NCBI GenBank assembly: GCA_016193565.1 | Contig: JACPRY010000002.1 | Location: 1 to 42,435 of the forward strand | Direction: 5' to 3' | From: Armatimonadota bacterium | Lineage (GTDB): Bacteria; Sysuimicrobiota; Sysuimicrobiia; Sysuimicrobiales; Kaftiobacteriaceae | DNA length: 42,435 nucleotides | Part shown: positions 4,698 to 24,444 of the stretch, piece after piece | How the letters are laid out: each line of letters starts with the position of its first letter | Position numbering within the stretch: the stretch's first letter is position 1 | Notes under the pieces: model-generated | What the model was told of the DNA's origin: nothing | Databases searched by the model: none | Seen by the model: the letters and a program-made list of their open reading frames with translations, nothing else | Program-made: the position numbers and the translations under genes

Positions 4698-5606
4698 ATG
4701 GAGGCTGGGAAAGGGCCAATCCTCGTCATCATTAATCCCACCGCCAGCCGGGGCCGCGGCGTCCGTGCCTGGGCCAGAGTCCGTGATGCGGTGGCCTCCC
4801 GCGGATTTGTCGTCACCGAAGTCCTCACTGAACGGCGGATGCATGCCTGGGAGATCGCGCGTGGTGCCGGTCAGCAGGGCTACAGCACCGTCGTGGCGGT
4901 AGGGGGAGACGGCACTGTGCACGAGGTCATCAACGGTCTGATGCAGACAGCCCAGACGGCGCGGCCTGCGCTGGCGGTCCTTCCCGGGGGAACCGGCAAC
5001 GATTTCGCGCGGGGCATCGGCACACCAAAGCGGGCCGAACTCGCGATTCAGGCGCTACTGAACGGCACGAGAAAGCGTGTTGATGTGGGGCAGGTGAACG
5101 ATCGGTACTTCGGCAGCATCTCGGGCGTGGGGTTCGATGCCGAAACTGCGCGGCAGGCGAACCAGTGGCCGAAGTGGATCGGCGGCACGGCGCTGTACGT
5201 CGCTGCGCTTCTGAAGATGCTTGTAGCCTACACCCCGGTCGAGACGACGATCACGATCGACGGACGCGTCCAGACGATCCGGATGTTTCTACTGGCGGCG
5301 GCCAATACCAAGTGGTACGGGGGCGGAATGTTCATGGCGCCGCATGCAGACATGAATGACGGCCGCCTGGCCGTTGTGTATGCGCGCGACCTGGGGAAAC
5401 TTGAAACGCTCGCAGTGCTCCCGAAAGTCTATTCTGGGAAACACCTGCTGCACCCCAAGGTCTCACACACAACGGCCGACGAAATCCGGGTCGAGAGCGA
5501 CACTCCGCTGTCCATTCACGCCGACGGAGAGATCGTCGGTCGTGTGCCCGCGGTGTTCCGCGCGGTTCACGGCGCCCTTGAAGTGCTGGTCCCCCAACTG
5601 CCGTGA
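4698..5606 (+). CDS. Diacylglycerol kinase family lipid kinase (YegS/DagK/BmrU)
   Basis: INP, GGDGTVHEVING, GTGNDFAR, GFDA, YGGG, DGE. Confidence 0.93.
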   Translation: MEAGKGPILVIINPTASRGRGVRAWARVRDAVASRGFVVTEVLTERRMHAWEIARGAGQQGYSTVVAVGGDGTVHEVINGLMQTAQTARPALAVLPGGTGNDFARGIGTPKRAELAIQALLNGTRKRVDVGQVNDRYFGSISGVGFDAETARQANQWPKWIGGTALYVAALLKMLVAYTPVETTITIDGRVQTIRMFLLAAANTKWYGGGMFMAPHADMNDGRLAVVYARDLGKLETLAVLPKVYSGKHLLHPKVSHTTADEIRVESDTPLSIHADGEIVGRVPAVFRAVHGALEVLVPQLP

Positions 5607-5684
5607 ATCGTGAATCGTGAATGGTGAATCGCACTACCTCTTAGGGTCATCACCATTCACCATTCACCATTCACCATTCACGGC
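5600..5684. repeat. Inverted heptamer-array element, GTGAATG family, copy 1
   Basis: (GTGAATS)x4 at 5603-5630, spacer, (CATTCAC)x4 at 5654-5681; closes with GCC/GGC; contains both convergent stop codons. Confidence 0.92.
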
Positions 5685-6376
5685 TTCTTGGGTTTCTGAT
5701 CCTCCGGCAACAGTTTCGCAATTTCCGCCATGATCCGCCGTCCCCACTCCTCCAGCACCTGGTGATCGAGTTTCCCTTCGATCTTCGGCACGGATAAGGG
5801 CCGGCCGAACCGCACGATGACGCGCTGAAAACGCGGCAGGGCCGAACCCTTGGGCATCGCGCGATGGCTGTTGACAACGGCGATGGGTAGGACCGTCACT
5901 CCCGTCCGCAGCGCCAGCATCGCCGCGCCGGGTTCGGGATCCTGGAGCCGGCCGTCGGGGCTCCGCGTCCCCTCGGGGAACATCACGAGGACGCCTCCGG
6001 AGGCCAGCACCTCGAGCGAGTGCCGGATCGCCGCACGGTCGGGCTGGCCGCGCCGGACGGGAAACGTTCCAATCGATCGCAGCCAGGGACCCACGACCGG
6101 CACCGAAAAGAGCTCGGCCTTCGCCATGTACGCCGCCCGGTTGCGCAGCGCCGCGCCAATGATAAGTGGATCGGCCGCGCTCGCGTGGTTGCCCGCCACG
6201 ATGAACGGGCCCCGCTCCGGCTCGTGCTCCCGGCCTTCGATCGTGAAGCGCGTGAGCACCTTGAAGAACGCGCTCATTACGAGCTTCCAGAAGAGGTACC
6301 ACAGGCCGGAGAGCGTCCCGGCGACGCGGTGCCCGGGGGATGCCCGTGGGATCGACGCGACGGCGTTCCGGTTCAC
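5678..6376 (-). CDS. plsC: 1-acyl-sn-glycerol-3-phosphate acyltransferase
   Basis: NHASAAD (NHxxxxD), FPVRR, FPEGTRS; follows cmk. Confidence 0.92.
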   Translation of the reverse strand: MNRNAVASIPRASPGHRVAGTLSGLWYLFWKLVMSAFFKVLTRFTIEGREHEPERGPFIVAGNHASAADPLIIGAALRNRAAYMAKAELFSVPVVGPWLRSIGTFPVRRGQPDRAAIRHSLEVLASGGVLVMFPEGTRSPDGRLQDPEPGAAMLALRTGVTVLPIAVVNSHRAMPKGSALPRFQRVIVRFGRPLSVPKIEGKLDHQVLEEWGRRIMAEIAKLLPEDQKPKKP

Positions 6377-7065
6377 CGAGGCGGCCTCGCCAGCTGCACA
6401 ATGCGATTCACGATCTCCTCGACGGTCAACCCTGTGGTATCGATGACCACGGCATCCTCGGCCCGTCGCAACGGGGAGTGCGCTCGGGTCGTGTCCCGCC
6501 GGTCGCGCTCTTCCTCAGCCCGCTTGAGTGACTCAAAGTCCACCCGCACACCTTTCGCAACCAGTTCCTGATACCTGCGGCGCGCGCGCTCGGCGGGCGA
6601 CGCGTCCAGAAATACCTTGACGTCGGCATCGGGGAAGACGACGGTGCCGATGTCCCGGCCTTCCATCACCACACCGCCTGACGCGCCCAGCCGCCGCTGC
6701 TCTGCGACCAGGCCCTCCCTGACGGCAGGATGGGCGCTGACGACGGAGGCTGCGTGGCTGACCTCAGGACTGCGGATGATGTCGGTGACATCCGTGCCAT
6801 TGACGAGAATTCGCGGCCGGCCGTTCGCGGTGACGAATTCGATCGACACCGACCTGGCCAGGGTCGCAACGGCACGCTCATTTCGGAGATCCACGCCCTG
6901 AGATTTGGCGAGCCAGGCCACAGAGCGGTACATTGCGCCGGTGTCGACATAGCGATACCGAAGCGCCGCGGCGACCGCCATTGCGACCGTACTCTTTCCG
7001 GCGCCGACCGGTCCGTCGATCGCGATGATCGGCGCCGCCCTGCGGCGTGCTCCGGGATCGGGCAT
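6373..7065 (-). CDS. cmk: Cytidylate kinase
   Basis: IAIDGPVGAGKST, DTGAMYR, MEGRDIGTVVFPDA. Confidence 0.96.
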   Translation of the reverse strand: MPDPGARRRAAPIIAIDGPVGAGKSTVAMAVAAALRYRYVDTGAMYRSVAWLAKSQGVDLRNERAVATLARSVSIEFVTANGRPRILVNGTDVTDIIRSPEVSHAASVVSAHPAVREGLVAEQRRLGASGGVVMEGRDIGTVVFPDADVKVFLDASPAERARRRYQELVAKGVRVDFESLKRAEEERDRRDTTRAHSPLRRAEDAVVIDTTGLTVEEIVNRIVQLARPPR

Positions 7066-7961
7066 CAGCGGTGCTCTGACGTGAGTTGGCGCGCCGCTCC
7101 GGAGGCAAGCACGTGCGGCCGTCCCGACACTGGGTGTGGGACCACCGTGACCGGAATTCCATACGCGGCTTCGAGGATCGGTGCCTGCAACACCTGGTCG
7201 GGTCTGCCGAGCGCGGCGACTCGCCCCCCTGAGAGCAGCACAAGCGGATCGCAGAACGCGGATGCCAGGTTGACGTCGTGCACGGCCGCGACCAGCGCGA
7301 TACCGCCTTGGCGCAGCGCCGACAGCAGCTCCATGATCTCGATCTGGTACCTGAGGTCCAGGTGTGCTGTCGGCTCATCGAGCAGCAGCACGCGGGGTCC
7401 CTGCGCGAGCGCGCGCGCGATCAGCACCCGCTGGAACTCGCCGCCGCTCAACGTGTCGACCGGCCGATGGGCCAGGTGGAGGATGCCGGTTTGCGCCATC
7501 GCCGCACGCACGATTTCGAGGTCCTTCGAGGTTTCGGCGGCAAGGGGAGCGAGGTGTGGGGCCCGGCCCATCGAGACGATCTCATGCGCCGTGAACCCGA
7601 ACCCAGACCCTGTGCGCTGAGGCACGACGCCGGCCAGGGCGGCGACCTCCCGGCGCGACATCTTCGCCACCGGACGGCCCTCGATCAGCACCGTCCCGCG
7701 TTCCGGCGACACCACCGCGTCCATCGCCCGCAGGAGCGTGGTCTTTCCGCTGCCGTTGGGTCCGATGATCCCGCACATCTCTCCTGGCGAGACCGTCAAG
7801 CTGACACCGTCGAGCGCCGGGATCGCGCCGTAGCGGCAGACGATCTGATCAACGAGGATCGCCGCTTGTGCCACTGCCGAATGAGCCACTTCCGCCCCCC
7901 TCACCCTACCCTCTCCCACCCCGGGGAGAGGGGAAGAGGTTGGCCCCTTCCGGGGCCTCAC
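7065..7961 (-). CDS. Cobalamin/Fe-siderophore ABC transporter ATP-binding protein
   Basis: GPNGSGKT, LSGGE.QRV, LDEPTAHLD, HD; start uncertain (GTG 7961 or 7889). Confidence 0.92.
   Translation of the reverse strand: MRPRKGPTSSPLPGVGEGRVRGAEVAHSAVAQAAILVDQIVCRYGAIPALDGVSLTVSPGEMCGIIGPNGSGKTTLLRAMDAVVSPERGTVLIEGRPVAKMSRREVAALAGVVPQRTGSGFGFTAHEIVSMGRAPHLAPLAAETSKDLEIVRAAMAQTGILHLAHRPVDTLSGGEFQRVLIARALAQGPRVLLLDEPTAHLDLRYQIEIMELLSALRQGGIALVAAVHDVNLASAFCDPLVLLSGGRVAALGRPDQVLQAPILEAAYGIPVTVVPHPVSGRPHVLASGAARQLTSEHR
7895..7936. repeat. REP-like CCCTCACCC..CCCTCTCCC/GGGAGAGGG hairpin element
   Basis: CCCCCTCACCCTACCCTCTCCC-ACCCCG-GGGAGAGGGGAAG; 9-bp perfect stem. Confidence 0.7.
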
Positions 7962-8830
7962 CTGCGAAAGGCCTCCGGATGCAGGAGCCGCGCCAGATAC
8001 GCCAGCCCGTCGACGATGCGGGGCCCCGGCCGGGACAGAAGTGCCGAATCGGCGCTGACGACGCGCCCCGACCGGATCGCGTCGACCTGGGCCCAGCCAC
8101 GGCGGGCGAGGACCTGATCGCGCTGGCGATGGGTGAGCACGATGATCTCCGGATTTCGCTGGATCACGGCCTCGGCGCTGAGCTGGGGCCAGCCGCGTAG
8201 ATCCGCGAAGACGTTGCGTCCACCCGCGCGCCGGACCAGATCGTCGATGAACGTCCCCTGCCCTGCCGTGATCAACGGCTCCCCCCAGATCTCGACGTAC
8301 ACCCGAAGCCTCGGCCGTCCCCGCACGGCGGCTTCGACCCCCGACTGCTGCGAGCGCATGCTCGCAATCAGGCGCTGCGCCGCTCGCTCTGATGCCGTCG
8401 CGGCGCCGACGAGCGCAATCTGGGCGTATGTCTGCGGTATCGAATTCGCCTCCACGGCCAGCACCGGCAGTCCCATCGCAATGAGACGCTCAAGCTGCGC
8501 GGCCTGCAGGCCGGGCATCCCGATGATGAGATCGGGCCGCAGGCTCACGATGCGCTCGATATTGAGCTGCACGCCGCCGACGCGGGGTTTCGTCCTGACG
8601 CGCTCCCGCGGGTAGTCGTCAGCATCGCTGACTCCCACGATCCGCCTGTCCAGCCCGAGCGCGAACAGCACTTCGGTGACACTCGGCGCGATGGAGATGA
8701 TGCGGGCCGGTTCCCGGACGAGTGTGACCTTCCGGCCGAGCGCGTCCGTGACCGTGACCGGAAACGCACCGCCGGCCGGCACTGTGGCGGCGAGCACCAG
8801 GGTGAGCGCAAGCCACCAACCTCGAAGCAT
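7958..8830 (-). CDS. Cobalamin/iron-complex ABC substrate-binding protein (BtuF-like)
   Basis: Signal peptide, FPVTVTDALGR, RIISIAPSVTE, ERIVSLRPD, RPGPR; start trimmed to MLRGWW. Confidence 0.9.
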   Translation of the reverse strand: MLRGWWLALTLVLAATVPAGGAFPVTVTDALGRKVTLVREPARIISIAPSVTEVLFALGLDRRIVGVSDADDYPRERVRTKPRVGGVQLNIERIVSLRPDLIIGMPGLQAAQLERLIAMGLPVLAVEANSIPQTYAQIALVGAATASERAAQRLIASMRSQQSGVEAAVRGRPRLRVYVEIWGEPLITAGQGTFIDDLVRRAGGRNVFADLRGWPQLSAEAVIQRNPEIIVLTHRQRDQVLARRGWAQVDAIRSGRVVSADSALLSRPGPRIVDGLAYLARLLHPEAFRR

Positions 8831-8864
8831 CGCTACTCTTCCCAGCTGATCTGCATCCCGAGAT

Positions 8865-9353
8865 TCATTTGAGCGTCCACGTTTTCCGCCAGCTTTCGGG
8901 GAGATCGAGTTCGGCAATTTTCGCGTAGAACACCCACATCCCATGATGAAGCGTTTCGTGTTGTAACAGATACATGAGGTGCTGCAGCAGCGTCGCCTGG
9001 GTCCCATGCCACTCGATCGTACGGGCGGCATCGGCCTCACGCAGCGCGGCGAGCAGCGAGGCGTCTTGTTCCCGCAGGAACGCGTCCAACCGGTCCTTCG
9101 ACTGCTCGAGCGCGCGCTGCCTGGGTCGTGTCGCAAAATCCAGCCGGCCGCTGGTGATCGCGGCGACGTAGGCGGCCTGAATCTCTCCGACGTGACGGAT
9201 CTGGCGGATCAGCGTTCCGAACCCGGGATGGGGCGAGAAGTTCATCACGGCGTAGGGCAGAGACCGCAGGAGATCGTACGTCAACGCCCGCGCCGCCTGC
9301 CACGCGTCCGCCCACTGCTCGATCTCAGGAGTCGGAAACGCCGGCTCCGGCAT
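8865..9353 (-). CDS. DinB/DUF664 family protein
   Basis: IRHVGEIQ and HETLHHG His motifs; AGGAG SD before ATG 9353. Confidence 0.82.
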   Translation of the reverse strand: MPEPAFPTPEIEQWADAWQAARALTYDLLRSLPYAVMNFSPHPGFGTLIRQIRHVGEIQAAYVAAITSGRLDFATRPRQRALEQSKDRLDAFLREQDASLLAALREADAARTIEWHGTQATLLQHLMYLLQHETLHHGMWVFYAKIAELDLPESWRKTWTLK

Positions 9354-9390
9354 GTCGCTCCTACGTTCGCGCACGCCAGATGCAATCCCC

Positions 9391-10521
9391 CTACGGGGGC
9401 CTGCCGGCGAGACGGCGCGCCCATCGGACAAAGCGCGCCCACCACGATCCCCTCCTGACATCTTCGGCGGCGAGCAGCCGCACGTGAGCGACCACCCTGC
9501 CCTCACTGCTGAACACCGCAGTGCCGACAATCTGGCCGCTGCGCACCGGCGCACCTGTCGAGAGCAACGTAATACGCGTTGCAATGGAAGCGCCGCGCCG
9601 GACCGGCACGACGACCTCGTCCTCCGCGACCGCCACCAGGAAACGCGCCCCGCCGGGCAGAGGCCCATCATACAGGATCTCTCCGGCCGCGGCCGCTCGG
9701 ACCGGTGAAAATGCGGCGAAGCCGTAGTCAAGGAGCGCCGCGGCGTCTCTGTACATCCGTGGAGCGTTCAGTACGACGGCGATCAGCTGCCAGCCGTCCC
9801 GGGTGGCTGAGGCGATCAGGCACGGCCCGGACTGTGCGATCCACCCCGTCTTCACGCCGTCGGCCCCACGATACCGCCAGAGCAGGCTGTTTGTATTGAT
9901 CAGCATCATCGACTGTTGGCCGGGGCGGGCGAGGCTCCAGGTTTGCGTGCGGACGATCTCGGCAAACCGGGGAATTCGAAGGGCCGCGCGGGCGATCACC
10001 GCCAGGTCGTAGGCCGTTGCCAGGTGACGCGGATGATAGCGCCCGTGGGGCGAGTTGAAGTGACTGCGCCGCGCGCCGAGCGTCTTCGCACGAGCGTTCA
10101 TCTGGACAGCGAACTGGTCGAGCGATCCGGCCACCGCTTCAGCCAGCGCGATTGCGGCGTCGTTCGCGGAGTGCATCAGCAGCGCATAGAGGAGGTCGCG
10201 CGCCTTCCACCGTTCGCCGGCTTCGAGTCCGATCGCCGACCCAGACCGCTCCTCCGAAGCGCGCTCGTGAATCGGAACCAGTGTCTCGTCGGTCAGCGCC
10301 TCCATCGCGAGGAGTGCGGTCAGGATCTTTGTGGTGCTGGCGGGGGGCCGGGGGACGTCGGGCGATTTCGCGTGGAGCACGCGGCCGCTGCGCGCGTCCA
10401 TCAGGACTGCCGAGGTGGCGCCGATGATCGGGGGGCGGGGCGTTGGGGCCGCCGGCGCCGGCGTACTGATGACGGCGGCCAGCAGATGAAAGACGAGCGC
10501 CGCCGCGGCGATCCAACGCAC
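9391..10521 (-). CDS. Serine D-Ala-D-Ala carboxypeptidase (S11; DacB/DacF-like)
   Basis: PASTTK (SxxK), SAN (SxN), KTG; signal peptide after GTG 10521. Confidence 0.92.
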   Translation of the reverse strand: MRWIAAAALVFHLLAAVISTPAPAAPTPRPPIIGATSAVLMDARSGRVLHAKSPDVPRPPASTTKILTALLAMEALTDETLVPIHERASEERSGSAIGLEAGERWKARDLLYALLMHSANDAAIALAEAVAGSLDQFAVQMNARAKTLGARRSHFNSPHGRYHPRHLATAYDLAVIARAALRIPRFAEIVRTQTWSLARPGQQSMMLINTNSLLWRYRGADGVKTGWIAQSGPCLIASATRDGWQLIAVVLNAPRMYRDAAALLDYGFAAFSPVRAAAAGEILYDGPLPGGARFLVAVAEDEVVVPVRRGASIATRITLLSTGAPVRSGQIVGTAVFSSEGRVVAHVRLLAAEDVRRGSWWARFVRWARRLAGRPP

Positions 10522-10534
10522 GGTGCCGCGGCGA

Positions 10535-11107
10535 TCAGGACGGCGCAGACAGTTCTTCCTGGGAAGGCGCGACACCGTCGAGCGCCTTGCGGGGGTCATG
10601 GTTGGCAAGTGGCGGAAGACTGGTGAGATCTTTGAGTCCGAAGTGCCGCAGGAACGCTTCGGTCGTCCCGTACAGGAACGGCCGGCCGGGCGCCGGGCGC
10701 CGGCCGACTTCTCGGATCAGGTACCGGTCGAGGAGCTTCTCCAAAACGTGCTCGCAGCGCACCCCACGGACCGCTTCGATCTCCCCACGCGTCACCGGCT
10801 GTCGGTACGCGATGATCGCGAGCGTCTCCAGCTGCGCATGCGTGAGCGTCTCCTGATGCTCCAGCTGGAGAAAGCGCTGCACATAGTCGGCGTAGGCCGG
10901 CCGGGTGACCAGCTGGTACCCGCCGGCGACTTCCTGAATCTGCAGGCCGTGGCCCTCGTAGTCACGGGCCAGATCAGCCAGCGCAGAGATGATGACCTCG
11001 TCGCGTGCGCCGAGCGCCTCACGTAGCTGCTGAAGCCGGACCGGGCCGCCGCCCACGAGGAGGAGGCATTCCGCGGCCCGCTTGAGCATGTCGTCGCCGA
11101 CGCTCAT
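10535..11107 (-). CDS. scpB: SMC-Scp complex subunit ScpB
   Basis: LETLAIIAYRQPVTRGEIEAVRGV, PGRP.LYGTT..FL..FGL. Confidence 0.96.
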   Translation of the reverse strand: MSVGDDMLKRAAECLLLVGGGPVRLQQLREALGARDEVIISALADLARDYEGHGLQIQEVAGGYQLVTRPAYADYVQRFLQLEHQETLTHAQLETLAIIAYRQPVTRGEIEAVRGVRCEHVLEKLLDRYLIREVGRRPAPGRPFLYGTTEAFLRHFGLKDLTSLPPLANHDPRKALDGVAPSQEELSAPS

Positions 11108-11829: not shown

Positions 11830-11843
11830 GGGCTAACCCTCCA

Positions 11844-11943
11844 ACTGCGGAAACAAGGAAACGTGGAAACTAGGAAACGACACGAAATCAACTGAAGTTC
11901 GGTGTTTTGTTTCCTCGTTACCTTGTTTCCTCGTTTCCGCAGT
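11844..11943. repeat. Inverted octamer-array element, GGAAACNN family
   Basis: ACTGC+(GGAAACNN)x4 at 11849-11880, 26-nt spacer, (TYGTTWCC)x4 at 11907-11938 + GCAGT. Confidence 0.92.
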
Positions 11944-11959
11944 CATGCCCTAGCAAGCT

Positions 11960-12574: not shown

Positions 12575-12593
12575 TCCGGAACCACTTTCGCTG

Positions 12594-13898: not shown

Positions 13899-13902
13899 CA
13901 GT

Positions 13903-13931: not shown

Positions 13932-13963
13932 GCAAGATTCGTCAGCTCCCTTGGCGACCGGCG

Positions 13964-13992: not shown

Positions 13993-14029
13993 TGAGACGG
14001 CGGGCGCCATCGCACCCGCAGGTGATTGT

Positions 14030-15208: not shown

Positions 15209-16996
15209 TTGACGCCGGCGGCTTACCTGACGCTTGCCGTTCTACTCGTCGCTACCGTCGCCTTCGCCAGCGGCCGGTGGCGGCCCGATGCGGTCGCCGT
15301 CCTCACCCTGCTCGCGCTGCTCCTCGGCGGGGTGATCTCCCCCGAGAAAGGATTCGCCGGCTTTGGCTCTCCGGTGCTCGTCGCCGTCGCGTGCGTCCTC
15401 GTGGTGAGTGCCGCCCTCGACCGCACCGGGATCGCAGCGACCATCGGCCGGCGCATCCTCCGTGCCGCGGGCGCGAACGAGCTGCGGCTCGTTATCACCT
15501 TCGGCACCGTGGCCGGCCTCCTGGCCGGCGTCATGAACAGCATCGGTGCGATCGCCGTGCTGCTGCCTGCCGCCATGGCCGCGGCGCGCGAAGCGCGGAT
15601 GAGCCCCTCAAAGCTGCTGCTGCCGCTTGCGCTCGGAACCCGGCTCGGCGGCAACCTGACCTTGATCTCCGGACCCAGTAACCTCATCGCCAGCGACGCG
15701 CTGGTTCACGGCGGAGGGCGCCCGTTGGGATTGTTTGAATTTCTTCCCCTCGGCCTCGCATTTCTCATCGGCGGCATGGCCTTCATCGCCTATGTTGGGC
15801 GGCGATGGTTGCCGGATGTGCCGATCCACGAGCTCCCGCGGTCAGGGCGGCTGATGGAACTCTACCGCCTCAAAGAGCGGCTGTTCGAGGTGAAGATCCC
15901 TGAGGACTCGCCGCTGGTCGGCCGGACGATCGGAGAAAGCAATCTCGGCCGCGCGCACGGGCTGACGGTGCTCCGCATCACCAGGGCCGGCCGCCAGATC
16001 CTGGCACCGACCCGCGAGGAGGTCCTGTTCGACGGAGATCTGCTTACCGTGCAGGGCTTGATGGAAGCGTTGACCAAGGACGGTGCCCTGCAGACCATCG
16101 GCCTCGGGCCGGCCACGGAAGTCACCGCGCCGTTGCTGGAATCGGCCGACGTCCGTGTCGTGGAGGTGATCCCGGCGCCGCGCTCGACATTTGCGGGAAA
16201 GACGCTGCGCGAGATTGGCTTCCGCGAAAAGTATGGCATGACCGTGCTCGCAATCTGGCGTGAGGGCCAGCCCCGGCGCACCGGTCTGGTCGATCTGCCG
16301 GTCCGGTTAGGCGATGCGCTCCTCGTGCAGGGGCACAGGGAGCGGATCAGACTGCTCAAGCGGGATCCTGAGTTCCTTGTGCTTGAGCCGGAGACCGAGG
16401 AGATCCCGCGCGCCGACCGGGCGGCGTGGGCGCTTGCGGCCGTCGTGCTCATGATCGCGGCGATCACCGCCGACGTACTCCCGGTCGCCGTCGCCACACT
16501 GCTGGCCGCGGGTATTGTCGTCGCTGGTGGATGCCTGACATTAGAGGAAGTCTACCGGTCGATCGACTGGCGGGCCCTGGTGATGATCGGCGCGATGTTG
16601 CCGGTGGGGGACGCCCTCGGCGCCACCGGGGCCGCAGGGGTGGTGGTCACCGGCACCCTCGAATTTATCGGCCGGACCCCGCTGGCGGCCATGTCCGCGC
16701 TGCTGCTTGCGGCGATCGCCATCAATCAGCTGATGCCGAGCATCGCCGCCACCGCGCTGCTGGCGCCGATTGCGCTCCAGGCCGCCCAGGCGACCGGCGG
16801 GAATCCCGTCGCCTTCGTGATGGCGGTGGTTGCCGGAACCGGTACAACCTTCACGCCGATCAGCAACCCCGTGAACCTGCTGGTGATGGGACCCGGCGGT
16901 TACAAGGTGAGCGACTACGTTCGGATCGGCCTGCCGCTGGCGCTCGTCCTCGGCGCAATCGCGGTGCTGGTGATCATCACCTTCTGGCCTCTGTGA
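15209..16996 (+). CDS. SLC13/CitMHS-type permease with two TrkA-C (RCK_C) domains
   Basis: Multiple TM segments, SKLLLPL...LGG.LTLI...NL, two SPL.G.T RCK_C-like repeats, GGYK.SDY.RIG. Confidence 0.88.
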   Translation: MTPAAYLTLAVLLVATVAFASGRWRPDAVAVLTLLALLLGGVISPEKGFAGFGSPVLVAVACVLVVSAALDRTGIAATIGRRILRAAGANELRLVITFGTVAGLLAGVMNSIGAIAVLLPAAMAAAREARMSPSKLLLPLALGTRLGGNLTLISGPSNLIASDALVHGGGRPLGLFEFLPLGLAFLIGGMAFIAYVGRRWLPDVPIHELPRSGRLMELYRLKERLFEVKIPEDSPLVGRTIGESNLGRAHGLTVLRITRAGRQILAPTREEVLFDGDLLTVQGLMEALTKDGALQTIGLGPATEVTAPLLESADVRVVEVIPAPRSTFAGKTLREIGFREKYGMTVLAIWREGQPRRTGLVDLPVRLGDALLVQGHRERIRLLKRDPEFLVLEPETEEIPRADRAAWALAAVVLMIAAITADVLPVAVATLLAAGIVVAGGCLTLEEVYRSIDWRALVMIGAMLPVGDALGATGAAGVVVTGTLEFIGRTPLAAMSALLLAAIAINQLMPSIAATALLAPIALQAAQATGGNPVAFVMAVVAGTGTTFTPISNPVNLLVMGPGGYKVSDYVRIGLPLALVLGAIAVLVIITFWPL

Positions 16997-17000
16997 AACT

Positions 17001-17078
17001 GCCGAAGGTCGTATGTCGAAGGTCGAATGTTGCCACGGAAATTGCTCTCGACTTTCGACCTACGACCTTCGACCTACG
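17001..17078. repeat. Inverted heptamer-array element, GTCGAAG family
   Basis: GCCGAAG GTCGTAT GTCGAAG GTCGAAT, 17-nt spacer, TCTCGAC TTTCGAC CTACGAC CTTCGAC CTACG; CTA 17074-76 is the trmI stop. Confidence 0.85.
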
Positions 17079-17868
17079 TTGTTTTCTCTGGTTGGATCTT
17101 CCTGGCCGTGGTGATGAAGGCGGTATGCGCCACCATCCGGTGTGCCGGACGTACGCTCTGCCCCTCAATGTTCCACGGCCGGAGCAGCGTCTCGCTCGTC
17201 TCAATCATGGCAAACGTGCCCTCCCGACGGAGCGTCTCCACCATCTGCGCGGCCTGCGGGACCGTCGGCACATACGACAGCAGCACCCCACCGGGACGGA
17301 GGGCCCCCGCTGCGTGCGGAACGACCCGCCAGGGCTCGGGGACATCAAGGAGGATGCGGTCGAGCGGTTGATCGGGGATTGCCTCGTACACGTCCTGCGC
17401 CCGCAGGACGAGATGATCCACTGGACCCAGATACCACTCGATGTTCTGGACCGCCCGTCGTTGGAACTCCTCGCGGACCTCGTACGAGAACACCCGGCCG
17501 TTGGGTCCCGCTGCGCGCAGGAGCGCCATGGTCAGCGCGCCGGACCCCGTGCCGGCTTCAAGGACCGTCGCGCCTGGAAAGATGTCCGCCGCAATGAGGA
17601 TCACGCTGAGGTCCTTCGGGTAGATGATCTGCGCCCCGCGGGGCATTTCGAGTACGAACTCAGCCAGCGTGGGCCGGAGGAGCAGGAACTGCTCTCCGCG
17701 TGTGGTGGTGACGTACCGGCCTTCGGACGTGCCGAGGAGCTGGTCGTGCGGAAGTTTGCCGCCACGCAGATCAGCAGTCGCGCCGGCGCGAAGCGTGATC
17801 ATGTAGCGCCGGGATTTGCGGTCAATGAGCAGCACGGGCTCGCCTTCATGGAGCGGGCCGCTGCGCAC
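17074..17868 (-). CDS. trmI: tRNA (adenine58-N1)-methyltransferase
   Basis: MPRGAQIIYPKD, EAGTGSGALT, LDVPEPW, RPAHRMVAHTAF. Confidence 0.93.
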   Translation of the reverse strand: MRSGPLHEGEPVLLIDRKSRRYMITLRAGATADLRGGKLPHDQLLGTSEGRYVTTTRGEQFLLLRPTLAEFVLEMPRGAQIIYPKDLSVILIAADIFPGATVLEAGTGSGALTMALLRAAGPNGRVFSYEVREEFQRRAVQNIEWYLGPVDHLVLRAQDVYEAIPDQPLDRILLDVPEPWRVVPHAAGALRPGGVLLSYVPTVPQAAQMVETLRREGTFAMIETSETLLRPWNIEGQSVRPAHRMVAHTAFITTARKIQPEKTT

Positions 17869-18281
17869 TACGCGTTCACGCCTCGGGGTTTCACGTGTTC
17901 CCTCACCCAGCGGACGATGTACTCCAGTGAAGCCCCGGGGGTGAAGATCTCGCTCACCCCCGCGCCCTTCAACCCTAGCACGTCGTCTTCAGGAATAATC
18001 CCCCCGCCGAAGACGACGATATCGTCTGCCCCGTTGGCCCGAAGGAGCTCCATGACACGCGGCAACAGCGTCATGTGCGCGCCGGAGAGGATCGAGAGTC
18101 CGATCGCGTCCGCGTCCTCCTGGATCGCCGCGTTCACGATCATCTCGGGGGTCTGGTGCAGCCCGGTGTAGATCACCTCGAACCCCGCGTCCCGCAGAGC
18201 GCGCGCCACGACCTTCGCCCCGCGGTCGTGGCCATCCAACCCGGGCTTGGCGACGATGATTCTGATCTTAGAGTTGGCCAT
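17868..18281 (-). CDS. icmB: Acyl-CoA mutase small (cobalamin-binding) subunit
   Basis: [10 protein letters not shown] (DxHxxG), SILSGAH, GGIIP; adjacent to the large subunit. Confidence 0.85.
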
Positions 18282-18297
18282 CGGAATGATCTTACTA

Positions 18298-18339
18298 CCG
18301 TTTTCTCGTTTCCTCGATTCCTCGTTTCCTCGATTCCGC
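18298..18339. repeat. Orphan octamer arm, GGAAACNN family
   Basis: CCGTTTTC TCGTTTCC TCGATTCC TCGTTTCC TCGATTCC GC, just after the mutase stop; matches the right arm at 11907-11940. Confidence 0.85.
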
Positions 18340-18341
18340 CT

Positions 18342-20027
18342 CTAGATTATCGCGGGTTCCCGATACTCCCCGTAGACCGCCCTGAACACATCGCAGATTT
18401 CGCCCAACGTGCACCCGGCCTTCACGCATTCGAGGACGTGATACATGGTGTTGCCGCCGCCGTCGGCCGCCGATTTCAAACCGCCCAGGGCTCGCCCTGC
18501 GCGGACGCTCTCCCGCTGCGCGCGCACCCGGCTCACCCGCTCGATCTGGCGGCGCTCCACCTCAGGATCGACGCGGAGAAGGGGAATCCGCCGTTCCTCG
18601 GGCACGAGGAACTCATTGACCCCGACAATGATCTGCTCTTTTCGCTCCAGTTGCTGCTGGTAGTGATAGCTGGCTTCGGCGATCTCCCGCTGCGGGTAGC
18701 CGAGCTCGACCGCCCGCACCATCCCGCCGAGATCGTCGATCTTCTGGATATACGCCTCGGCGCGCTCCTCCATAGTGTTGGTCAGCGACTCCACGAAGTA
18801 CGCGCCGCCCAGCGGGTCCGCGGTGTTCGTCAACCCGCTCTCATGGGCGATAATCTGCTGGGTACGGAGCGCCACCATGACGGCTTGCTCCGTCGGGAGG
18901 GCATACGTCTCGTCCATGGAGTTGGTATGCAGCGACTGGGTGCCACCGAGCACCGCCGCGAGTGCCTGGACTGCCACACGGACGATATTGTTGAGCGGCT
19001 GCTGTGCCGTGAGCGACACGCCGGCAGTCTGGGTGTGGAAGCGCAGCCACCACGAGCGCGGGTTCTGAGCCGCAAAGCGCTCTCGCATGATCCGGGCCCA
19101 CAGGCGGCGGGCGGCGCGGAACTTGGCGATCTCCTCGAAGAAGTCGTTGTGGCAATCGAAGAAAAATGACAGGCGCGGCGCGAACTCGTCGACATCGAGT
19201 CCCGCCTCCGTTCCGGCCTGGACGTATGCGATCCCGTCAGCGAGTGTGAACGCGAGCTCCTGGACCGCCGTCGCCCCGGCCTCGCGGATGTGGTATCCGC
19301 TGATGCTGATGACGTTCCACTTGGGCAGCTCGCGCGTGCCGAAGACCAGCATGTCCTGGATCAGCTTCATGCTCGGCCGCGGCGGCACGATCCATTCCTT
19401 CTGGGCAATGAACTCCTTGAGCATATCCGTCTGGGTCGTGCCGCCGATCTGCGTCCGGGCGAAGCCCATCGACTCGGCCGCCGCGACATACATCGCCAGG
19501 AGCACGTTCGCCGGCGCATTGATCGTCATCGAGGTCGTGATACGGTCCAGCGGCAGGCCGCGAAGGAGGATGGCCATGTCCTCGGCTGTGTCGATCGCGA
19601 CGCCCTCGCGGCCGACCTCGCCGAGCGCGCGCGGGTGGTCGGAATCGTAGCCCATCAGCGTGGGCATGTCGAACGCGACCGACAGTCCCGTTTGCCCATG
19701 CTCCAGGAGGTAGTGAAAGCGGCGGTTGGTGTCCTCGGCGGACCCGAACCCGGCGAACTGGCGCATCGTCCACAAGCGGCCGCGATACATCGTCGGATGG
19801 ACCCCGCGGGTATATGGGTACTCTCCCGGGACGCCAAGCTCACGCTGGGGATCGAAATCCTTCAGGTCCTCTGGACCATAAACCCGATCGATCGGCAGAT
19901 CTGAGAGTGAGGAGAATCGCTCCACGCGCTCGGGCTGGCTCTTCAAGGATTGCTTGAGCGTCGTGGCCTCCCAGCGCTGCCTTTCGCGGCGGAGGTGCTC
20001 GAGTTTCTTGGGGTCGATCAAATTCAT
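18342..20027 (-). CDS. icmA: B12-dependent acyl-CoA mutase large subunit, isobutyryl-CoA mutase type
   Basis: [50 protein letters not shown]. Confidence 0.85.
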
Positions 20028-20036
20028 CAACTCCTC

Positions 20037-20114
20037 AGGGCTTGGGGCTTAGGGCTTTGGGCTTAGAATTCCTCATCCTCATTATTAAGCCCTAAGCCCG
20101 ATGCCCTAAGCCCT
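20037..20114. repeat. Inverted heptamer-array element, GGGCTTA family, copy 1
   Basis: (NGGGCTT)x4 at 20037-20064, 21-nt spacer, TAAGCCC TAAGCCC GATGCCC TAAGCCC; contains the etfA stop. Confidence 0.92.
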
Positions 20115-21098
20115 TCCTTTCGCCTGGCGTATCGCTTCCGTCAGTTTGGGCACGATCTCGAACAGGTCGCCGACGATGCCGAGGTCGGCGAGTTGAAAGA
20201 TCGGTGCGTTGGAGTCCTTATTGATAGCCACAATGTATTTCGCGCCCGACATCCCGGCGAGGTGCTGCGGTGCGCCGGAGATGCCGCATGCGAGGTAGAC
20301 CTGCGGGCTCACGGTCTTTCCGGTCTGCCCGATCTCATAGTCGTGGCTCACCCAGCCTGAGTCCACCGGCGGTCGCGATGATCCGACCGCCGCCCCCAGC
20401 GCCTTCGCCAGCGCGTCAAGGAGAGCGAAGTTCTCAGGTCCCTTCAGGCCCCGACCACCGGAGACGATCACGTCGGCTTCGGTCAGCGGCACCGTCTCGC
20501 GCTGGATGGCACGCACCTCGCGGACCTGTGTCCGTACCCCCTTGCTGTCGAGCGCGACCTGGAACGCTCTGATCTCTGCGCGGCGCCCGGCCTCAGCCGG
20601 TGGCACGGAATACACGGCCGGGAGCACCACGGCAATCCGGATCCCCCCGCTCGAAAACACCACCGTGCCGATCGTCTTTCGCGTGTACATCGGCCGAGTC
20701 GCCACCAGATGACCGTCCGCGACCTCCAGGCTCGCGCAGTCGGTCACGATCCCAGCGCCGAGCCTGGCCGCGACCCGGGGCGCGTAATCCCGGCCCTGTG
20801 CTGTGGACCCGACGAGCACGAGGGTGGGCTGCTCTGCTTGGAGCGCCTGACTGACAGCCTGCGCGTACGCATCTGCGGTGTACGGCTGCAGGAGCGCATG
20901 ATCCGCCGCATAGACAATGTCCGCTCCCCGGGAACCAAGTGACTCAGCGACGTTCGACACACCGGCGCCTGGCACGAACGCCACGACCGTTCCGCCAAGT
21001 GTCTCGGCCAGTTCCCGGGCGCGGCCAAGCAGCTCAAGGCTGATTTTTTTTGGCGCGCCGTCCTGATGCTCGATGATGACCCACACGTCCTTCGACAT
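20106..21098 (-). CDS. etfA: Electron transfer flavoprotein alpha subunit
   Basis: [39 protein letters not shown]. Confidence 0.95.
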
Positions 21099-21100
21099 CG

Positions 21101-21892
21101 CTACAGAACTTTCGCTTCGTTCTTGAGGAACGCGACAATCTCGGCCACGGCTTTCTCGGCATCCTCTTCAATCATCCGGCCGGCCTGGCGCTTGGGCGGG
21201 GGCACGAGCCGCGTCAAGGCGCTCTTCGCCGCAGTTGCACCGACGGAGGGGACCTCGACGCCGAGATCGGCGAGGCTCATCGTCTTGATCTCCTTGCGCT
21301 TGGCCTTCATGATGCCCGGGAGCGACGGGTAGCGCGGCTCATTGAGGCTGCGCTCAACCGTCAGGAGCGCCGGCAGCGGGACCTCCAGCACTTCCACCCC
21401 ACCCTCGACCTCACGATGAACAACCACGGTCCCCCCCGACGTGTCAACCTCCAGCTGGGCAATCGCCGTCGCCTGCGGCAGGCCGAGCAGTTCGGCCAGC
21501 GCCGGTCCCACGATCGCGGCGTTGTCGTCCGTGCTGAGTTTCCCGCAGATGATAAGGTCGTGCGGCAAGGTCTTGATCGCCGCCGCCAGCACACGCGCCG
21601 TCCCGAGATGATCGCTACCCAGGAGCGCCACGTCGCTGACGAGGATCGCCTCGTCCGCCCCCATCGCCAGTCCGGTGCGTAATGCCTCCTTGGTGCGCTC
21701 GGGGCCGACGCCGATCAAGGTGACCGAACCGCCGAACTGCTCCTTAAGGCGCAGTCCGGCCTCAGTCGCATGCTCGTCATAGTAGTTCATGACGAGGTTG
21801 AGGCCCGATTCATCAATACCGCTCCCGTCAGGCCGAATGCGAATCGGGGCCTCCGTGTCGGGAACCTGTTTGACACAGACGACGATGTTCAC
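21101..21892 (-). CDS. etfB: Electron transfer flavoprotein beta subunit
   Basis: IVVCVKQVPD, LAMGAD, NEPRYPSL.GIMKAK. Confidence 0.95.
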   Translation of the reverse strand: MNIVVCVKQVPDTEAPIRIRPDGSGIDESGLNLVMNYYDEHATEAGLRLKEQFGGSVTLIGVGPERTKEALRTGLAMGADEAILVSDVALLGSDHLGTARVLAAAIKTLPHDLIICGKLSTDDNAAIVGPALAELLGLPQATAIAQLEVDTSGGTVVVHREVEGGVEVLEVPLPALLTVERSLNEPRYPSLPGIMKAKRKEIKTMSLADLGVEVPSVGATAAKSALTRLVPPPKRQAGRMIEEDAEKAVAEIVAFLKNEAKVL

Positions 21893-21905
21893 CCTACAAC
21901 ACCTC

Positions 21906-21979
21906 GTGAATAGTGAATGGTGAATGGTGAATCACTACATCCGGTTCTTGCCATTCACCATTCACAATTCACCATTCAC
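21906..21979. repeat. Inverted heptamer-array element, GTGAATG family, copy 2
   Basis: (GTGAATN)x4 at 21906-21933, 18-nt spacer, (MATTCAC)x4 at 21952-21979; contains the dehydrogenase stop; abuts the etfB SD. Confidence 0.92.
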
Positions 21980-23124
21980 TGCCTTGTTTTCAAAATGTTC
22001 CTCGCGATTACGAGTCGCTGTATCTCCGATGTCCCCTCATAGATCTCGGTGATCTTTGCATCGCGGAAATAGCGTTCCACAGCGTAGTCCTGGAGGTATC
22101 CGTACCCGCCGTGGATCTGCACCGCTTTGTGCGTCGTCCACATCGCGGTCTCAGAGGCGAACAGCTTCGCCATCGATGCTTCCTTTGTAAAGCGTTGTCC
22201 CTGCTGCCGGACGTAGGCGGCCCGGTACATGAGCAGCCGGGCGGCCTCGATCCGGGTCGCCATATCGGCTAGCATCCACTGAATCGCTTGAAACTCCCCG
22301 ATCGGCCGGCCGAACTGGAGGCGCTCGGTGGCGTAGGCGACTGAATCCTCCAGGGCCGCCCGGGCGATGCCGATGGCCTGTCCAGCGATGCCAAGGCGCC
22401 CGCCGTCGAGCGTGGACAGCGCGATCTTGCCGCCGATCCCTGGTTCCCCAAGCAGGTTGTCTTCCGGGACACGGCAGTCGTCGAGGAGAATCTCGGACGT
22501 CGACGAACACTTGATCCCGAGTTTCTTCTCCACCTTTCCAACGGCAATACCCGGAAACGATTTCTCAACGATGAACGCGGAGATCCCCCTCGCACCGGCG
22601 TCGGGTCCGGTGCGAGCGTACACGATGCAGACGTCGGCCTCGACGCCGTTCGTGACGAAGACCTTGGTCCCCCTCAACACCCACTCGTCCCCCGAGCGCC
22701 TGGCAGACGTGGACAGCGACATCGCATCGGAGCCCGAGGAGGGCTCGGTCAGACAGTAGCACCCCAGACGTATTCCGTTGCATAAGCCGGGAAGATAGTT
22801 CCGCTTCTGTGCCTCAGTGCCGTAGCGGGCGATCGGGTCAGCAACCAACGAGTTGTTGACGGTGATGATCGTCTGCACGCCGGCCGAGGCGCGCGCCAGT
22901 TCTTCCTGAGCCACGACATAGGAGATGGCGTCCATTCCGGTCCCGCCGTATGACTCGGGAACCAGCATGCCCATGAGGCCGAGGCCGGCCGCTTTCTTGA
23001 GAATCTCCTGGGGGAATGTACCGGAATGGTCCAGCTGCGCGGCGGCCGGCAAGATCTCCCGGGACGCGAACTCCCGCACCATCGATTGGACCATGCGGTG
23101 TTCTTCTGTCAGTCGAAAATCCAT
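21976..23124 (-). CDS. Short/branched-chain acyl-CoA dehydrogenase (Bcd-like)
   Basis: LTEPSSGSD, GTKVFVTNG, R.QFG, QIHGGYGY, IYEGTSEIQR. Confidence 0.94.
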   Translation of the reverse strand: MDFRLTEEHRMVQSMVREFASREILPAAAQLDHSGTFPQEILKKAAGLGLMGMLVPESYGGTGMDAISYVVAQEELARASAGVQTIITVNNSLVADPIARYGTEAQKRNYLPGLCNGIRLGCYCLTEPSSGSDAMSLSTSARRSGDEWVLRGTKVFVTNGVEADVCIVYARTGPDAGARGISAFIVEKSFPGIAVGKVEKKLGIKCSSTSEILLDDCRVPEDNLLGEPGIGGKIALSTLDGGRLGIAGQAIGIARAALEDSVAYATERLQFGRPIGEFQAIQWMLADMATRIEAARLLMYRAAYVRQQGQRFTKEASMAKLFASETAMWTTHKAVQIHGGYGYLQDYAVERYFRDAKITEIYEGTSEIQRLVIARNILKTRQ

Positions 23125-23215
23125 CCGCCATGCGAAAATTCTGCACTCGGGAAGGAGTCACCTCTGGACCGGTCAAATCACCACACGCCACGCCTTTTCT
23201 TCCGGGAGTTTACTC

Positions 23216-24364
23216 ATGAGCGAGGGTGTCGCCATCGTGGGCGTCGGCGCTGCTGTCCCACGCCCGCTGTCGCGTGATGTGTCGTACCGGGAGATGATCT
23301 TCGACGCCGCGACGCGGGCCCACACGGACGCGGGCGTCACGCACCACGAGATCGACAGCGTTGTCAGTGTCTGTGAGGACCTCCACGAAGGCACCAGCAT
23401 TACCGACGAGTACGTCCCCGACCAGCTCGGCGCAGTCCTGAAGCCGGTCCAGACGATCGCCGGTGATGGCGTGCAGGGCGTGGCCACGGGGTTCATGCTG
23501 ATCCGCACCGGCATCGCGGACCTGGTGGTGATCGAATCGCACTGCAAGTCATCGAACATCCTTCGCCACGGCGACGTGCTGGAGATGGCATTGGACCCGG
23601 TCTACGACCGGCCGCTGCGGGCGAACCCGCACTACATCGCGGGGATGGAGATGCGCCGCTACCTTCACGAGAGCGGCACCACGGAGGAAGCCGTCGCCGC
23701 CGTCGTCAGCAAGAACCGAGCTCACGCCCTGGACAACCCCGTGGCCCCGTTCGGTGCACGCATCCACACCGATGACGTGCTGGCCTCGTCTCCGCTGTGC
23801 GAACCGCTGCGTGTCCTGGAGATGAGCCCGTACGCCGATGGTGCGGTGGTGTTCGTACTGGCCTCGGAAGAGCGGGCACGGCGCTGTCCAAGGCCCGTCT
23901 GGATCCGCGGCATCGGCTGGATCTCCGACAGCCCGTGGCTTGCGATGCGCGAGTGGGCGGACGCCGTGTACGCATCGCTTTCGGCTCAGATGGCATATCA
24001 GATGGCAGGGATCGCCTCGCCCGCCGAGGAGATCGGGTTCGCCGAGGTCGACGATACGTATGCGTACAAGGAACTGCAACACCTGGAGGCCGCGCAGCTC
24101 GCACCGCGGGGTCGCGCGGGCGTGATGACGTTGGCGGGAGAAACCCGGCGCGATGGCCGCCTTCCCGTGAACTGCTCGGGCGGCAGCCTGGGGATGGGCT
24201 ACTGCTTTGACGCTTCCGCGCTGTACAGGATCGCTGAGGCTGCACGCCAGATTCGGGGCGAGTCTGGCCGCGCGCAGGTCGCGCACGCCACGACGGGGCT
24301 CGTGATCTCCTGGCGAGGCGTTCCGACGCAGAGCGGCGGCGCGGTTGTGCTCAATGCAGACTAA
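23216..24364 (+). CDS. Non-canonical (SCP2-type) thiolase-fold protein A
   Basis: Thiolase fold (A.DNP.A, DGA...VLAS, LPVN.SGG); no CxS nucleophile and no GHP. Confidence 0.85.
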   Translation: MSEGVAIVGVGAAVPRPLSRDVSYREMIFDAATRAHTDAGVTHHEIDSVVSVCEDLHEGTSITDEYVPDQLGAVLKPVQTIAGDGVQGVATGFMLIRTGIADLVVIESHCKSSNILRHGDVLEMALDPVYDRPLRANPHYIAGMEMRRYLHESGTTEEAVAAVVSKNRAHALDNPVAPFGARIHTDDVLASSPLCEPLRVLEMSPYADGAVVFVLASEERARRCPRPVWIRGIGWISDSPWLAMREWADAVYASLSAQMAYQMAGIASPAEEIGFAEVDDTYAYKELQHLEAAQLAPRGRAGVMTLAGETRRDGRLPVNCSGGSLGMGYCFDASALYRIAEAARQIRGESGRAQVAHATTGLVISWRGVPTQSGGAVVLNAD

Positions 24365-24368
24365 GTGA

Positions 24369-24444
24369 AGGGCTTAGGGCTTCGGGCTAAGGGCTAGACA
24401 ACTTCAAAGGGATACTAAGCCCCAAGCCCTAAGCCCAAAGCCCC
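24369..24444. repeat. Inverted heptamer-array element, GGGCTTA family, copy 2
   Basis: AGGGCTT AGGGCTT CGGGCTA AGGGCTA, 19-nt spacer, (NAAGCCC)x4. Confidence 0.92.

Follow-up and report, generated by a model that had tools for sequence, protein, structure and literature searches.

Six junctions between protein-coding genes in a 42,435-nt stretch of DNA from an Armatimonadota bacterium (GenBank assembly GCA_016193565.1, contig JACPRY010000002.1, positions 1 to 42,435 of the forward strand, here called the window) carry compact palindromes whose arms are built from short tandem repeats. This raises the question of what kind of element these hairpins are, how they arise at the ends of genes and what relates them to one another. 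All six are members of a lineage-specific population of DNA palindromes of about 80 bp, the arms of which consist of three to five tandem units of 7-9 nt, each with a constant core and one or two free positions. Their architecture, their positions, their turnover between genomes, the partial mirroring of their arms and the presence of similar inverted arrays around genes for four-helix-bundle proteins were all observed directly and are described below. In the reading that we favour, with confidence somewhat better than even, the elements are the gene-less form of a four-helix-bundle cassette of the type found in rRNA intervening sequences (IVSs) and among the heptamer arrays (STRRs) of cyanobacteria; the gene-less form here resides in mRNA spacers and would be transcribed as a stem and shaped by slippage and templated copying.

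A scan of the 42-kb window for long hairpins (stem of at least 18, pairing of at least 80%, loop of at most 60) returned exactly these six. Both arms of all six were also recovered by Tandem Repeats Finder (TRF), together with single arrays at 1129, 18299 and 26213, and two further short arrays (1-30 and 3753-3775) were recognised by reading the sequence. Folded as RNA, the six elements reached energies of -39.9 to -52.9 kcal/mol with z-scores of -4.4 to -10, and for each of them none of 200 shuffled sequences matched the real energy. All six sit between protein-coding genes, and none contains an open reading frame (ORF). A search of the window against Rfam matched no family, rRNA included.

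The window is contig C45 of an assembly designated G000, which comprises 1.74 Mb in 183 contigs with 64% G+C and is 86.7% complete. Tandem-periodic arms were found in 113 of the 175 long hairpins of this assembly, with a period of 7 in 76, of 8 in 21, of 9 in 15 and of 6 in a single case. One GC-rich hairpin inside a gene was removed later, which gave a working set of at least 112; the count is conservative, because the element at 11844 narrowly missed the periodicity cut-off. An independent count based on TRF yielded 110 adjacent inverted array pairs, and period 7 was the commonest in the TRF output (374 of 1537 rows). An inverted partner lies within 80 nt of 257 of the 529 arrays of period 7-9 in G000 and at 81-700 nt of another 19, while a further 181, in intergenic DNA or at the edge of a gene, have no partner, and 72 are buried within gene calls.

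The tandem-armed hairpins have a median stem of 27.5 bp, a median loop of 24.5 nt (interquartile range (IQR) 17-32) and a median total length of 79.5 nt (70-91), with a median of 3.8 units per arm (IQR 3.3-4.3). Their 38 consensus units fall into 13 clusters when up to one mismatch is allowed, the biggest of which are GTGAATN/GTGAYTN with 29 elements and GGTCGTN/GTCGAAN/GTCGTTN with 27. The original prediction, made from the window alone, had described six elements with one shared plan of about four units, a spacer of 17-26 nt and four inverted units in 74-100 bp, and had added single arms at 1, 1129, 3753, 18298 and 26213. All six elements are present where they had been placed, the five single arms are real, and the plan fits the genome-wide medians. 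The prediction had further claimed a class with a constant plan and varied units, in which distant sites share unit families; the genome-wide set bears this out with its 13 unit clusters and with a few families that recur at dozens of unrelated sites.

Polarity is constant in 111 of the 112 elements, and G exceeds C in the 5' arm of 95 of them. Exactly one column of the unit is variable in 51 of the 76 period-7 elements. The two arms mirror each other in part, though imperfectly: bases at core positions pair between the arms in 95% of cells, and those at variable positions in 315 of 547 (58%), compared with 204.5 +/- 9.4 (maximum 240 in 2000 shuffles) when the variable bases of one arm were permuted within the element, although the hairpin scan selects for pairing and both complementarity figures are therefore somewhat inflated. 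At the array edges a word ACT(A/G)C recurs, which on the opposite side reads G(C/T)AGT: any one of the four edges carries it in 14-20 of the 112 elements, compared with 2-4 for control positions at a distance of 40-60 nt. It is orientation-specific and lies 0-1 nt from the stem.

According to a crude in-house gene caller, the hairpins lie between co-directional genes in 80 cases, convergent genes in 12 and divergent genes in 5, at contig edges in 14 and inside gene calls in 2; the background intergenic gaps are co-directional in 1032 cases, convergent in 156 and divergent in 160. The stem starts a median of 7.5 nt 3' of a stop codon and ends 26 nt 5' of the next start. Of 74 stop codons adjoining hairpins, 35 (47%) are TAA, compared with 22% overall. 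An 8-mer array was also seen in a ribosomal-protein operon of G000 (C25:190-222), just upstream of a short zinc-ribbon ORF that is S14-like by eye; arrays therefore occur in essential, highly expressed operons too.

Synteny around the window is kept within the family, and the orthologous junctions could be compared in 20 relatives. They vary in the presence or absence of an element, in having one arm or two, in unequal arm lengths, and in units that are either related or swapped. At the junction between the acyl-CoA dehydrogenase gene (acd) and etfB, a tandem-armed hairpin is found in 4 of 21 rows of the comparison (units GTGAATN, GTGATTN, GTGACTN and GTGAATC), and the junction is only 8-30 nt long in 12 rows; its state differs even between genomes of one genus. 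The etfA-icmA junction carries hairpins in 3 of 21 rows (GGGCTTN, GGGACTN and GGGACCN), and in one genome the etfA reading frame enters the array. Between icmA and the next gene, 6 of 19 rows show arrays, which differ in unit and have one or two arms; in one genome the two arms count about 5 and about 11 units. All arrays at this junction end exactly at a conserved word GTAGTA(A/T)(G/A)(A/G)T, which the empty sites keep as well. In a genome of the same genus, G001, whose proteins in this region are 78-91% identical, all six hairpins are lacking, and the 5600 site holds 2.5 units of GGGCTTA in place of the GTGAATN hairpin. The TrmI-CitMHS junction has GTCGAAG units in G000 and GTGAATC units in G009. 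The presence/absence polymorphism among relatives that had been expected from the original prediction is thus rampant, and it includes swaps of the unit itself.

As a side observation on the icmA junction, the GTAGTA(A/T)(G/A)(A/G)T word (18281-18297 in the window) precedes the start codon of the gene at 17868-18281 by 7-11 nt. It looks like the -10 box of a leaderless or near-leaderless mRNA.

Turnover is also visible at the level of strains. Contigs from four metagenome runs of four studies (X1, X5, X6 and X8), with strains about 98% identical, were compared over positions 16900-24500; such contigs prove that forms exist and do not give their frequencies. The X1 contig has the same form as the window. 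In contigs from the three other studies, all five elements of the interval, namely four hairpins and the array at 18298, are missing or replaced, as listed in the last column of the table below. The short form at 18283-18344 also lacks the last codons of icmA, which other genera keep, and because these end codons are lost it represents an imprecise deletion and not an ancestral empty site. Within the G000 assembly itself, the contig ends C32:5507-6029 and C83:14943-15480 share flanks that are 100% (141 nt) and 96.4% (250 nt) identical around entirely different hairpins, and two strain variants of this locus are apparently present in the assembly. Separately, in the spacer between the divergent acyl-CoA dehydrogenase gene and its neighbour (window 23143-23214), 70 nt are replaced by 75 in X5, X6 and X8; in relatives, this spacer holds inverted arrays of 9-mers.

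A pattern of three successive GTGAATN units was matched in 10 of 22 family genomes and in none of 72 genomes from six other families of the phylum set (none of 71 if the unpublished genome G030 is left out). G000 has 123 matches, and the other genomes have 67, 58, 39, 34, 9, 4, 3, 2 and 2; the reversed pattern, used as a control, gave 0 in every genome. Sampled densities of period-7-9 arrays and of tandem-armed hairpins, both per 100 kb, were 30.4 and 6.5 in G000, 26.2 and 1.2 in G010, 19.6 and 3.9 in G009, and 12.5 and 0 in G003. They were 3.8 and 0 in G013, 3.7 and 0 in G012, and 8.8 and 0 in G021, a genome of another family.

The link to four-helix-bundle genes was examined with the families PF05635 and TIGR02436, whose protein is the "S23p" of 23S rRNA intervening sequences, also called "23S rRNA intervening-sequence protein". 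The search of G000 with PF05635 gave one strong match, on contig C53 (97.9 bits), and the same gene scored 90 bits against TIGR02436 "four helix bundle protein". It is flanked by 3.9 copies of CGACAACG (3127-3157) and by 5.9 copies of the inverted unit (3669-3715), and the whole cassette sits between two convergent gene ends. The array at 26213-26240 in the window has the unit family of these C53 arrays. A second PF05635 copy in G000 is truncated at a contig start and is followed by a 9-mer array. In the family as a whole, PF05635 was matched in 17 of 22 genomes; G013 and G012, the two family genomes at background density, have no match. Inverted arrays of 7-9-mers stand on both sides, within about 40-170 nt, in 19 of 27 family four-helix-bundle loci, and in 19 of the 24 that score at least 89 bits. 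The resulting cassettes measure 497-606 nt. The other loci are ambiguous (2), one-sided (3) or without arrays (3, all weak at less than 55 bits). Cassette units include GTGAATC, GTGACTG, GGGAACA, GTTGAAG and CGTTGGT, which are unit families of the gene-less hairpins.

Similar arrangements occur outside the family. In the sister family f5, inverted heptamers surround 2 of 6 sporadic four-helix-bundle genes (in G047 and G050). Six plasmid loci, taken from 40 matching records, were examined, and clearly inverted heptamer arrays were found in three (Nostoc edaphicum, Gemmatirosa and Riemerella). At the Trichormus locus, a clear array stands on just one side of the gene, and the Pseudanabaena and Nostoc PCC 7120 loci have arrays on both sides, but direct or of different units. 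In Nostoc edaphicum, seven copies of AGTAGGG and five of CCCTACT enclose a four-helix-bundle gene between nrdB and nrdA. The tie between heptamer arrays and four-helix-bundle genes, which the original prediction had put forward, therefore holds for C53, for 19 of the 27 family loci and in other phyla. Other cargo was sought in G000 among array pairs 80-3000 nt apart, and these mostly enclose ordinary genes (YbaB-like, response regulator, RidA/cupin). A further weak four-helix-bundle-like ORF was noticed at 2142-2432 of locus L086 (contig C128 of G000; 19.8 bits against TIGR02436, below the cut-off), divergent beside a Y1 transposase-like gene and free of heptamer arrays.

In the window, the genes flanking the six hairpins encode DAGK/YegS-like, acyltransferase, M50 peptidase, ScpA, CitMHS, TrmI-like, methylmalonyl-CoA-mutase-like, EtfA, EtfB and acyl-CoA dehydrogenase proteins, in agreement with the neighbours named earlier. 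The coordinates of all arrays and hairpins are collected in the table. The 1.1 kb that separate the inverted arrays at 1-30 and 1129-1167 consist of ordinary RidA-like and cupin genes. A stretch of 64-74 nt at another gene junction (about 7891-7965) matches many unrelated sites in relatives at 80-91% identity, and could represent either a motif conserved among paralogous genes or a further small repeat.

Table. Tandem-repeat arrays and hairpins of the window, with their surroundings and the forms found in contigs of other strains.
Position	Feature and unit	Arms and loop	Folding energy (kcal/mol), z	Surroundings	Form in other strains
1..30	9-mer array, ATCTNCACN	truncated by contig start		inverted relative to array 1129-1167	
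1129..1167	9-mer array, AGATTGTGA, 4.3 copies	no partner within 80 nt			
3753..3775	three 7-mer units (GGTCAAC-like)	single arm		at a gene's stop codon	
5600..5684	hairpin, GTGAATN	5600-5629 / 5655-5684, loop 25 nt	-45.5, z -9.96	between convergent stops of DAGK/YegS-like gene (4665-5606, +) and acyltransferase gene (5678-6376, -); outermost units contain both neighbour stop codons	
11844..11943	hairpin, 8-mer GGAAACNN	11844-11878 / 11909-11943, loop 30 nt	-52.9, z -8.47	between M50 peptidase gene and scpA (both -); bordered by ACTGC...GCAGT	
17001..17078	hairpin, GTCGAAG/GTCGTAN	17003-17026 / 17048-17071	-39.9, z -7.29	between convergent CitMHS transporter gene (+) and TrmI-like methyltransferase gene (-)	replaced by 33 unrelated nt (X5, X6, X8)
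18298..18337	8-mer array, CGTTTCCT, 4.9 copies (GGAAACGA on - strand)	single arm		between icmA and next gene; adjoins conserved GTAGTAAGAT motif	replaced by 16 nt (X5, X6, X8)
20037..20114	hairpin, GGGCTTN	20045-20066 / 20092-20113	-43.6, z -4.37	between etfA and icmA (both -); first unit contains etfA stop TAG	replaced by 27 nt (X6)
21906..21979	hairpin, GTGAATN	21906-21932 / 21953-21979	-41.3, z -6.69	between acd and etfB (both -); last unit contains acd stop TGA	82 nt skipped, 3 other letters between (X5)
24369..24444	hairpin, GGGCTTN	24370-24388 / 24418-24436	-42.7, z -5.61	between two + strand genes, 22925-24364 and 24449-25636	replaced by 22 nt (X8); several small indels (X5)
26213..26240	8-mer array, GCGACAAC, 3.5 copies	single arm		immediately 3' of stop of gene 25636-26211	

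In the favoured reading, the elements would be transcribed together with their operons and fold into a stem of 23-30 bp with regularly spaced mismatches. By analogy with the IVS stems of rRNA, RNase III may cut this stem, or the stem may stop exonucleases; an RNase III gene is present in G000. Arrays would lengthen and shorten through slipped-strand mispairing, templated copying or template switching inside the palindrome would keep the arms mirror-like, and elements would be lost by imprecise deletion. New arrays at gene ends may be seeded by copying units of the genome's own repertoire, as suggested by the units that unrelated sites share and by the different families that close relatives hold at one site. 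Such seeding could proceed by microhomology-primed template switching or through an activity linked to the cassette. Because single copies appear to be dispensable, the population would behave as tolerated or selfish DNA and not as a set of needed regulators.

Several results weigh against this reading. Comparison of 93 loops with 20 cassette interiors gave about 110 weak matches, compared with 107 for shuffled loops, so that an origin of the originally proposed empty cassettes by internal deletion gains no support from the loops. G000 has one clear four-helix-bundle cassette and a fragment, yet 13 unit clusters. Three f5 genomes with one cassette each showed no tandem-armed hairpins and, at 4-7.4 arrays per 100 kb, did not differ from cassette-free f5 genomes with their 0-8.3 (20-100 kb sampled per genome); the cassette is therefore not sufficient for the expansion of hairpins. 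The identity of four-helix-bundle proteins did not correlate with the similarity of their array units over 190 pairs (Spearman 0.05, p = 0.26), and the two agreed solely in the five pairs that are closest. On the sense strand, 37 mismatches were G-U and 27 A-C (p = 0.26), a difference that speaks neither for nor against a constraint at the RNA level, and a search for RNA runs covering the region found none. Finally, some units resemble pre-existing local sequence, as does the single GATCCC in G009 at a site where G004 and G010 have arrays, and purely local amplification is possible for part of the population.

Carried to the whole population, such a local origin is the most probable of the alternatives, although we consider it unlikely. 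Slippage of a heptamer beside a stop codon would be followed by a fold-back template switch that makes the inverted arm, the hairpin would be kept as a terminator or mRNA stabiliser, and the tie to four-helix-bundle genes would reflect nothing but a shared mutational mechanism. The loops are indeed unique (all-against-all comparison of the 93 loops gave 1-2 real matches only), the 181 unpaired intergenic arrays could be intermediates, and unequal arms as well as single-unit "proto" states are found, namely the GATCCC of G009 and a one-unit mini-hairpin GTGAAT...ATTCAC in G001. Units at one junction are moreover often related across genera, as with GTGAATN, GTGATTN and GTGACTN at acd-etfB. Yet local events do not explain why dozens of unrelated sites in four genera draw on the same few unit families, nor why close relatives carry different families at one site, as at 5600 and at the TrmI-CitMHS junction, and the near-constant association of arrays with four-helix-bundle genes in several phyla is left without an explanation. 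Selection on each copy must be weak, since copies are missing in strains that are about 98% identical. A role as intrinsic (Rho-independent) terminators was rejected: none of the six hairpins was called terminator-like, 5 of 79 stems have TTTT in the next 12 nt, and the median loop is long for such a purpose at 24.5 nt, although the T content 3' of the stems is mildly raised (32%, compared with 19% in intergenic DNA). Loss of the palindrome nuclease SbcD was likewise rejected as a cause, with TIGR00619-like matches for G000 as well as for 20 of 21 family genomes, most of them below the cut-off and covering the N-terminal third only.

The original prediction had proposed a non-autonomous mobile or cassette system or, alternatively, enzyme-templated repeat synthesis. 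Neither cut-and-paste nor copy-and-paste movement left a trace, as the loops are unique and target-site duplications are absent (the longest common flank word averages 3.14 nt, compared with 3.05 +/- 0.08 for shuffled pairing), and a miniature inverted-repeat transposable element or classical transposon was rejected on the same grounds. The absence of duplications is what IS200/IS605-like chemistry predicts, and non-autonomous doublets of the REPIN/RAYT type, moved as single-stranded DNA by HUH Y1 transposases that use ACT(A/G)C as cleavage or target site, would share the two inverted arms, the less conserved spacer and the extragenic position. Four Y1/HUH transposase-like genes (PF01797) are present in the 1.74 Mb, one of them in the window (41174-41755, - strand) and the others at C156:107-1030, C128:2298-2942 and C169:16510-17172. 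The window gene reaches 73.5 bits with NF047646 "REP-associated tyrosine transposase", for which 80 is the curated cut-off; none of the four is flanked by heptamer arrays, and four enzymes would have to serve about 13 unit clusters. The arms are direct tandem arrays and not palindromes, and the edge word is present at any one junction in only 12-18% of elements. Two of the four genes are preceded by a different palindrome, GTGCC(A/T)GGCAC (window 41803-41844), which has 48 genomic sites, often inside a longer conserved unit; it is the natural REP candidate and probably forms a separate REP/RAYT system with the Y1 genes. We therefore regard movement of the heptamer hairpins by Y1 transposases as decidedly improbable. 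Beside this, a conserved imperfect palindrome of the type GACCCATTTGGGCTATC was seen upstream of all four Y1 genes (window 41850-41880, read on the - strand; L087 1340-1365, L086 1975-1995 and L085 1065-1085), and it may be an operator or promoter element.

Synthesis by a dedicated enzyme, be it a reverse transcriptase that acts together with an Avd-like four-helix-bundle protein, a telomerase-like enzyme or a primase-polymerase that adds units of a core plus an untemplated base at gene ends, is the least probable of the explanations considered. It would account for the constant core with one free base and for the constant polarity, and PF05635 includes Avd, the accessory protein of diversity-generating retroelements (10.1101/2021.01.26.428298). 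However, no match to the reverse transcriptase family PF00078 was found in the 86.7%-complete G000 and no other candidate enzyme emerged, the free positions are mirrored above chance, which points to copying of arm from arm rather than independent synthesis, and the f5 genomes with a cassette show no expansion. A bolder reading holds that the four-helix-bundle "IVS proteins" and their own arrays form an undescribed mobile or self-propagating system, in which each protein would be specific for the unit of its own arrays, new arrays of that unit would be seeded and maintained at gene ends by the cassette, and the gene-less hairpins would be its non-autonomous offspring. We rate this as doubtful, less probable than a local origin and somewhat less remote than the Y1 transposases; if it were true, one mechanism would cover rRNA intervening sequences, cyanobacterial STRRs and these hairpins. 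Of the overall interpretation offered before, the class itself, the recurring units, the tie to four-helix-bundle genes and the polymorphism thus stand, whereas mobility, the empty cassette and the synthesis enzyme lack support so far, and the GxxExxY genes suggested as cargo of such cassettes are absent (TIGR04256 was matched in 0 of 22 family genomes).

This lineage is of use for an old problem. Heptamer arrays (STRRs), rRNA intervening sequences and four-helix-bundle genes have been known for decades, each without a mechanism or function. The lineage offers loaded and gene-less forms of the cassette together with dozens of unit families common to several genera, and strains about 2% apart already differ by gains, swaps and losses, so that the dynamics are directly measurable. 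If the stems are RNase III sites, more than 100 operon junctions, among them those of etf/acd, ribosomal-protein and transporter operons, would undergo strain-specific processing, which would be a cheap source of expression variation. The elements also provide stop codons, alter C-termini and vary by strain, and in this way affect gene calling and strain resolution in metagenome-assembled genomes.

In the literature search, which covered texts outside supplementary tables, neither compact inverted heptamer-array hairpins as a genome-wide class nor their strain-level turnover was found, and the closest known systems each share part of the plan. REPINs resemble the elements in their inverted arms, less conserved spacer, extragenic position and copy numbers of tens to hundreds, and in vertical persistence with dynamics within the genome. 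They differ in that their arms are short palindromes, while those here are tandem direct repeats, and in that the RAYT-like genes of G000 go with another repeat. The TAACTGA repeats of marine Beggiatoaceae, cyanobacteria and Bacteroidetes are likewise intergenic heptamer arrays with a patchy phylogeny, present in 2-6 copies at hundreds of sites (PMC4679880), and an ACT(A/G)-type word marks the array edges here too. In the TAACTGA genome described there, however, a single heptamer forms 169 direct sets and 1 inverted set that end just upstream of start codons (PMC4679880), whereas the elements here use many units, form inverted pairs and lie just downstream of stops.

The STRRs and the plasmid loci of Nostocales share intergenic tandem heptamers and four-helix-bundle genes that lie between operon genes with arrays on both sides. 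They belong to another phylum and use other units, and the dominant form here is a compact, gene-less inverted pair with about four units per arm. The rRNA intervening sequences are found in helices 9, 25 or 45 of rRNA, whereas the elements here occupy the spacers of protein-coding operons directly behind stops, number more than 100 per genome and have arms with nothing but repeat units, 3-5 per arm, which come from about 13 unit clusters. The hairpins are not IVS members in the strict sense, because the rRNA location that defines these is lacking. IVSs of 23S rRNA that carry S23p occur in Leptospira as well as in Coxiella, and enterobacteria have short IVSs without an ORF. The 23S rRNA IVS of Coxiella is closed by a terminal stem of 28 bp, which RNase III cleaves in the middle, and 2-3 GACAGAT repeats, plus one with a degenerate 3' base, precede the S23p ORF in a copy number that varies between strains (PMC4990558). 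The likeness to the elements described here thus extends to a long terminal stem (about 28 bp in Coxiella and a median of 27.5 bp here), to a loop that may hold a PF05635 gene and to a stem region with tandem heptamers, a degenerate 3' base and strain-variable copy number. It further includes the sporadic distribution and the existence of both a loaded form, of 497-606 nt in this family, and a gene-less form of about 80 nt.

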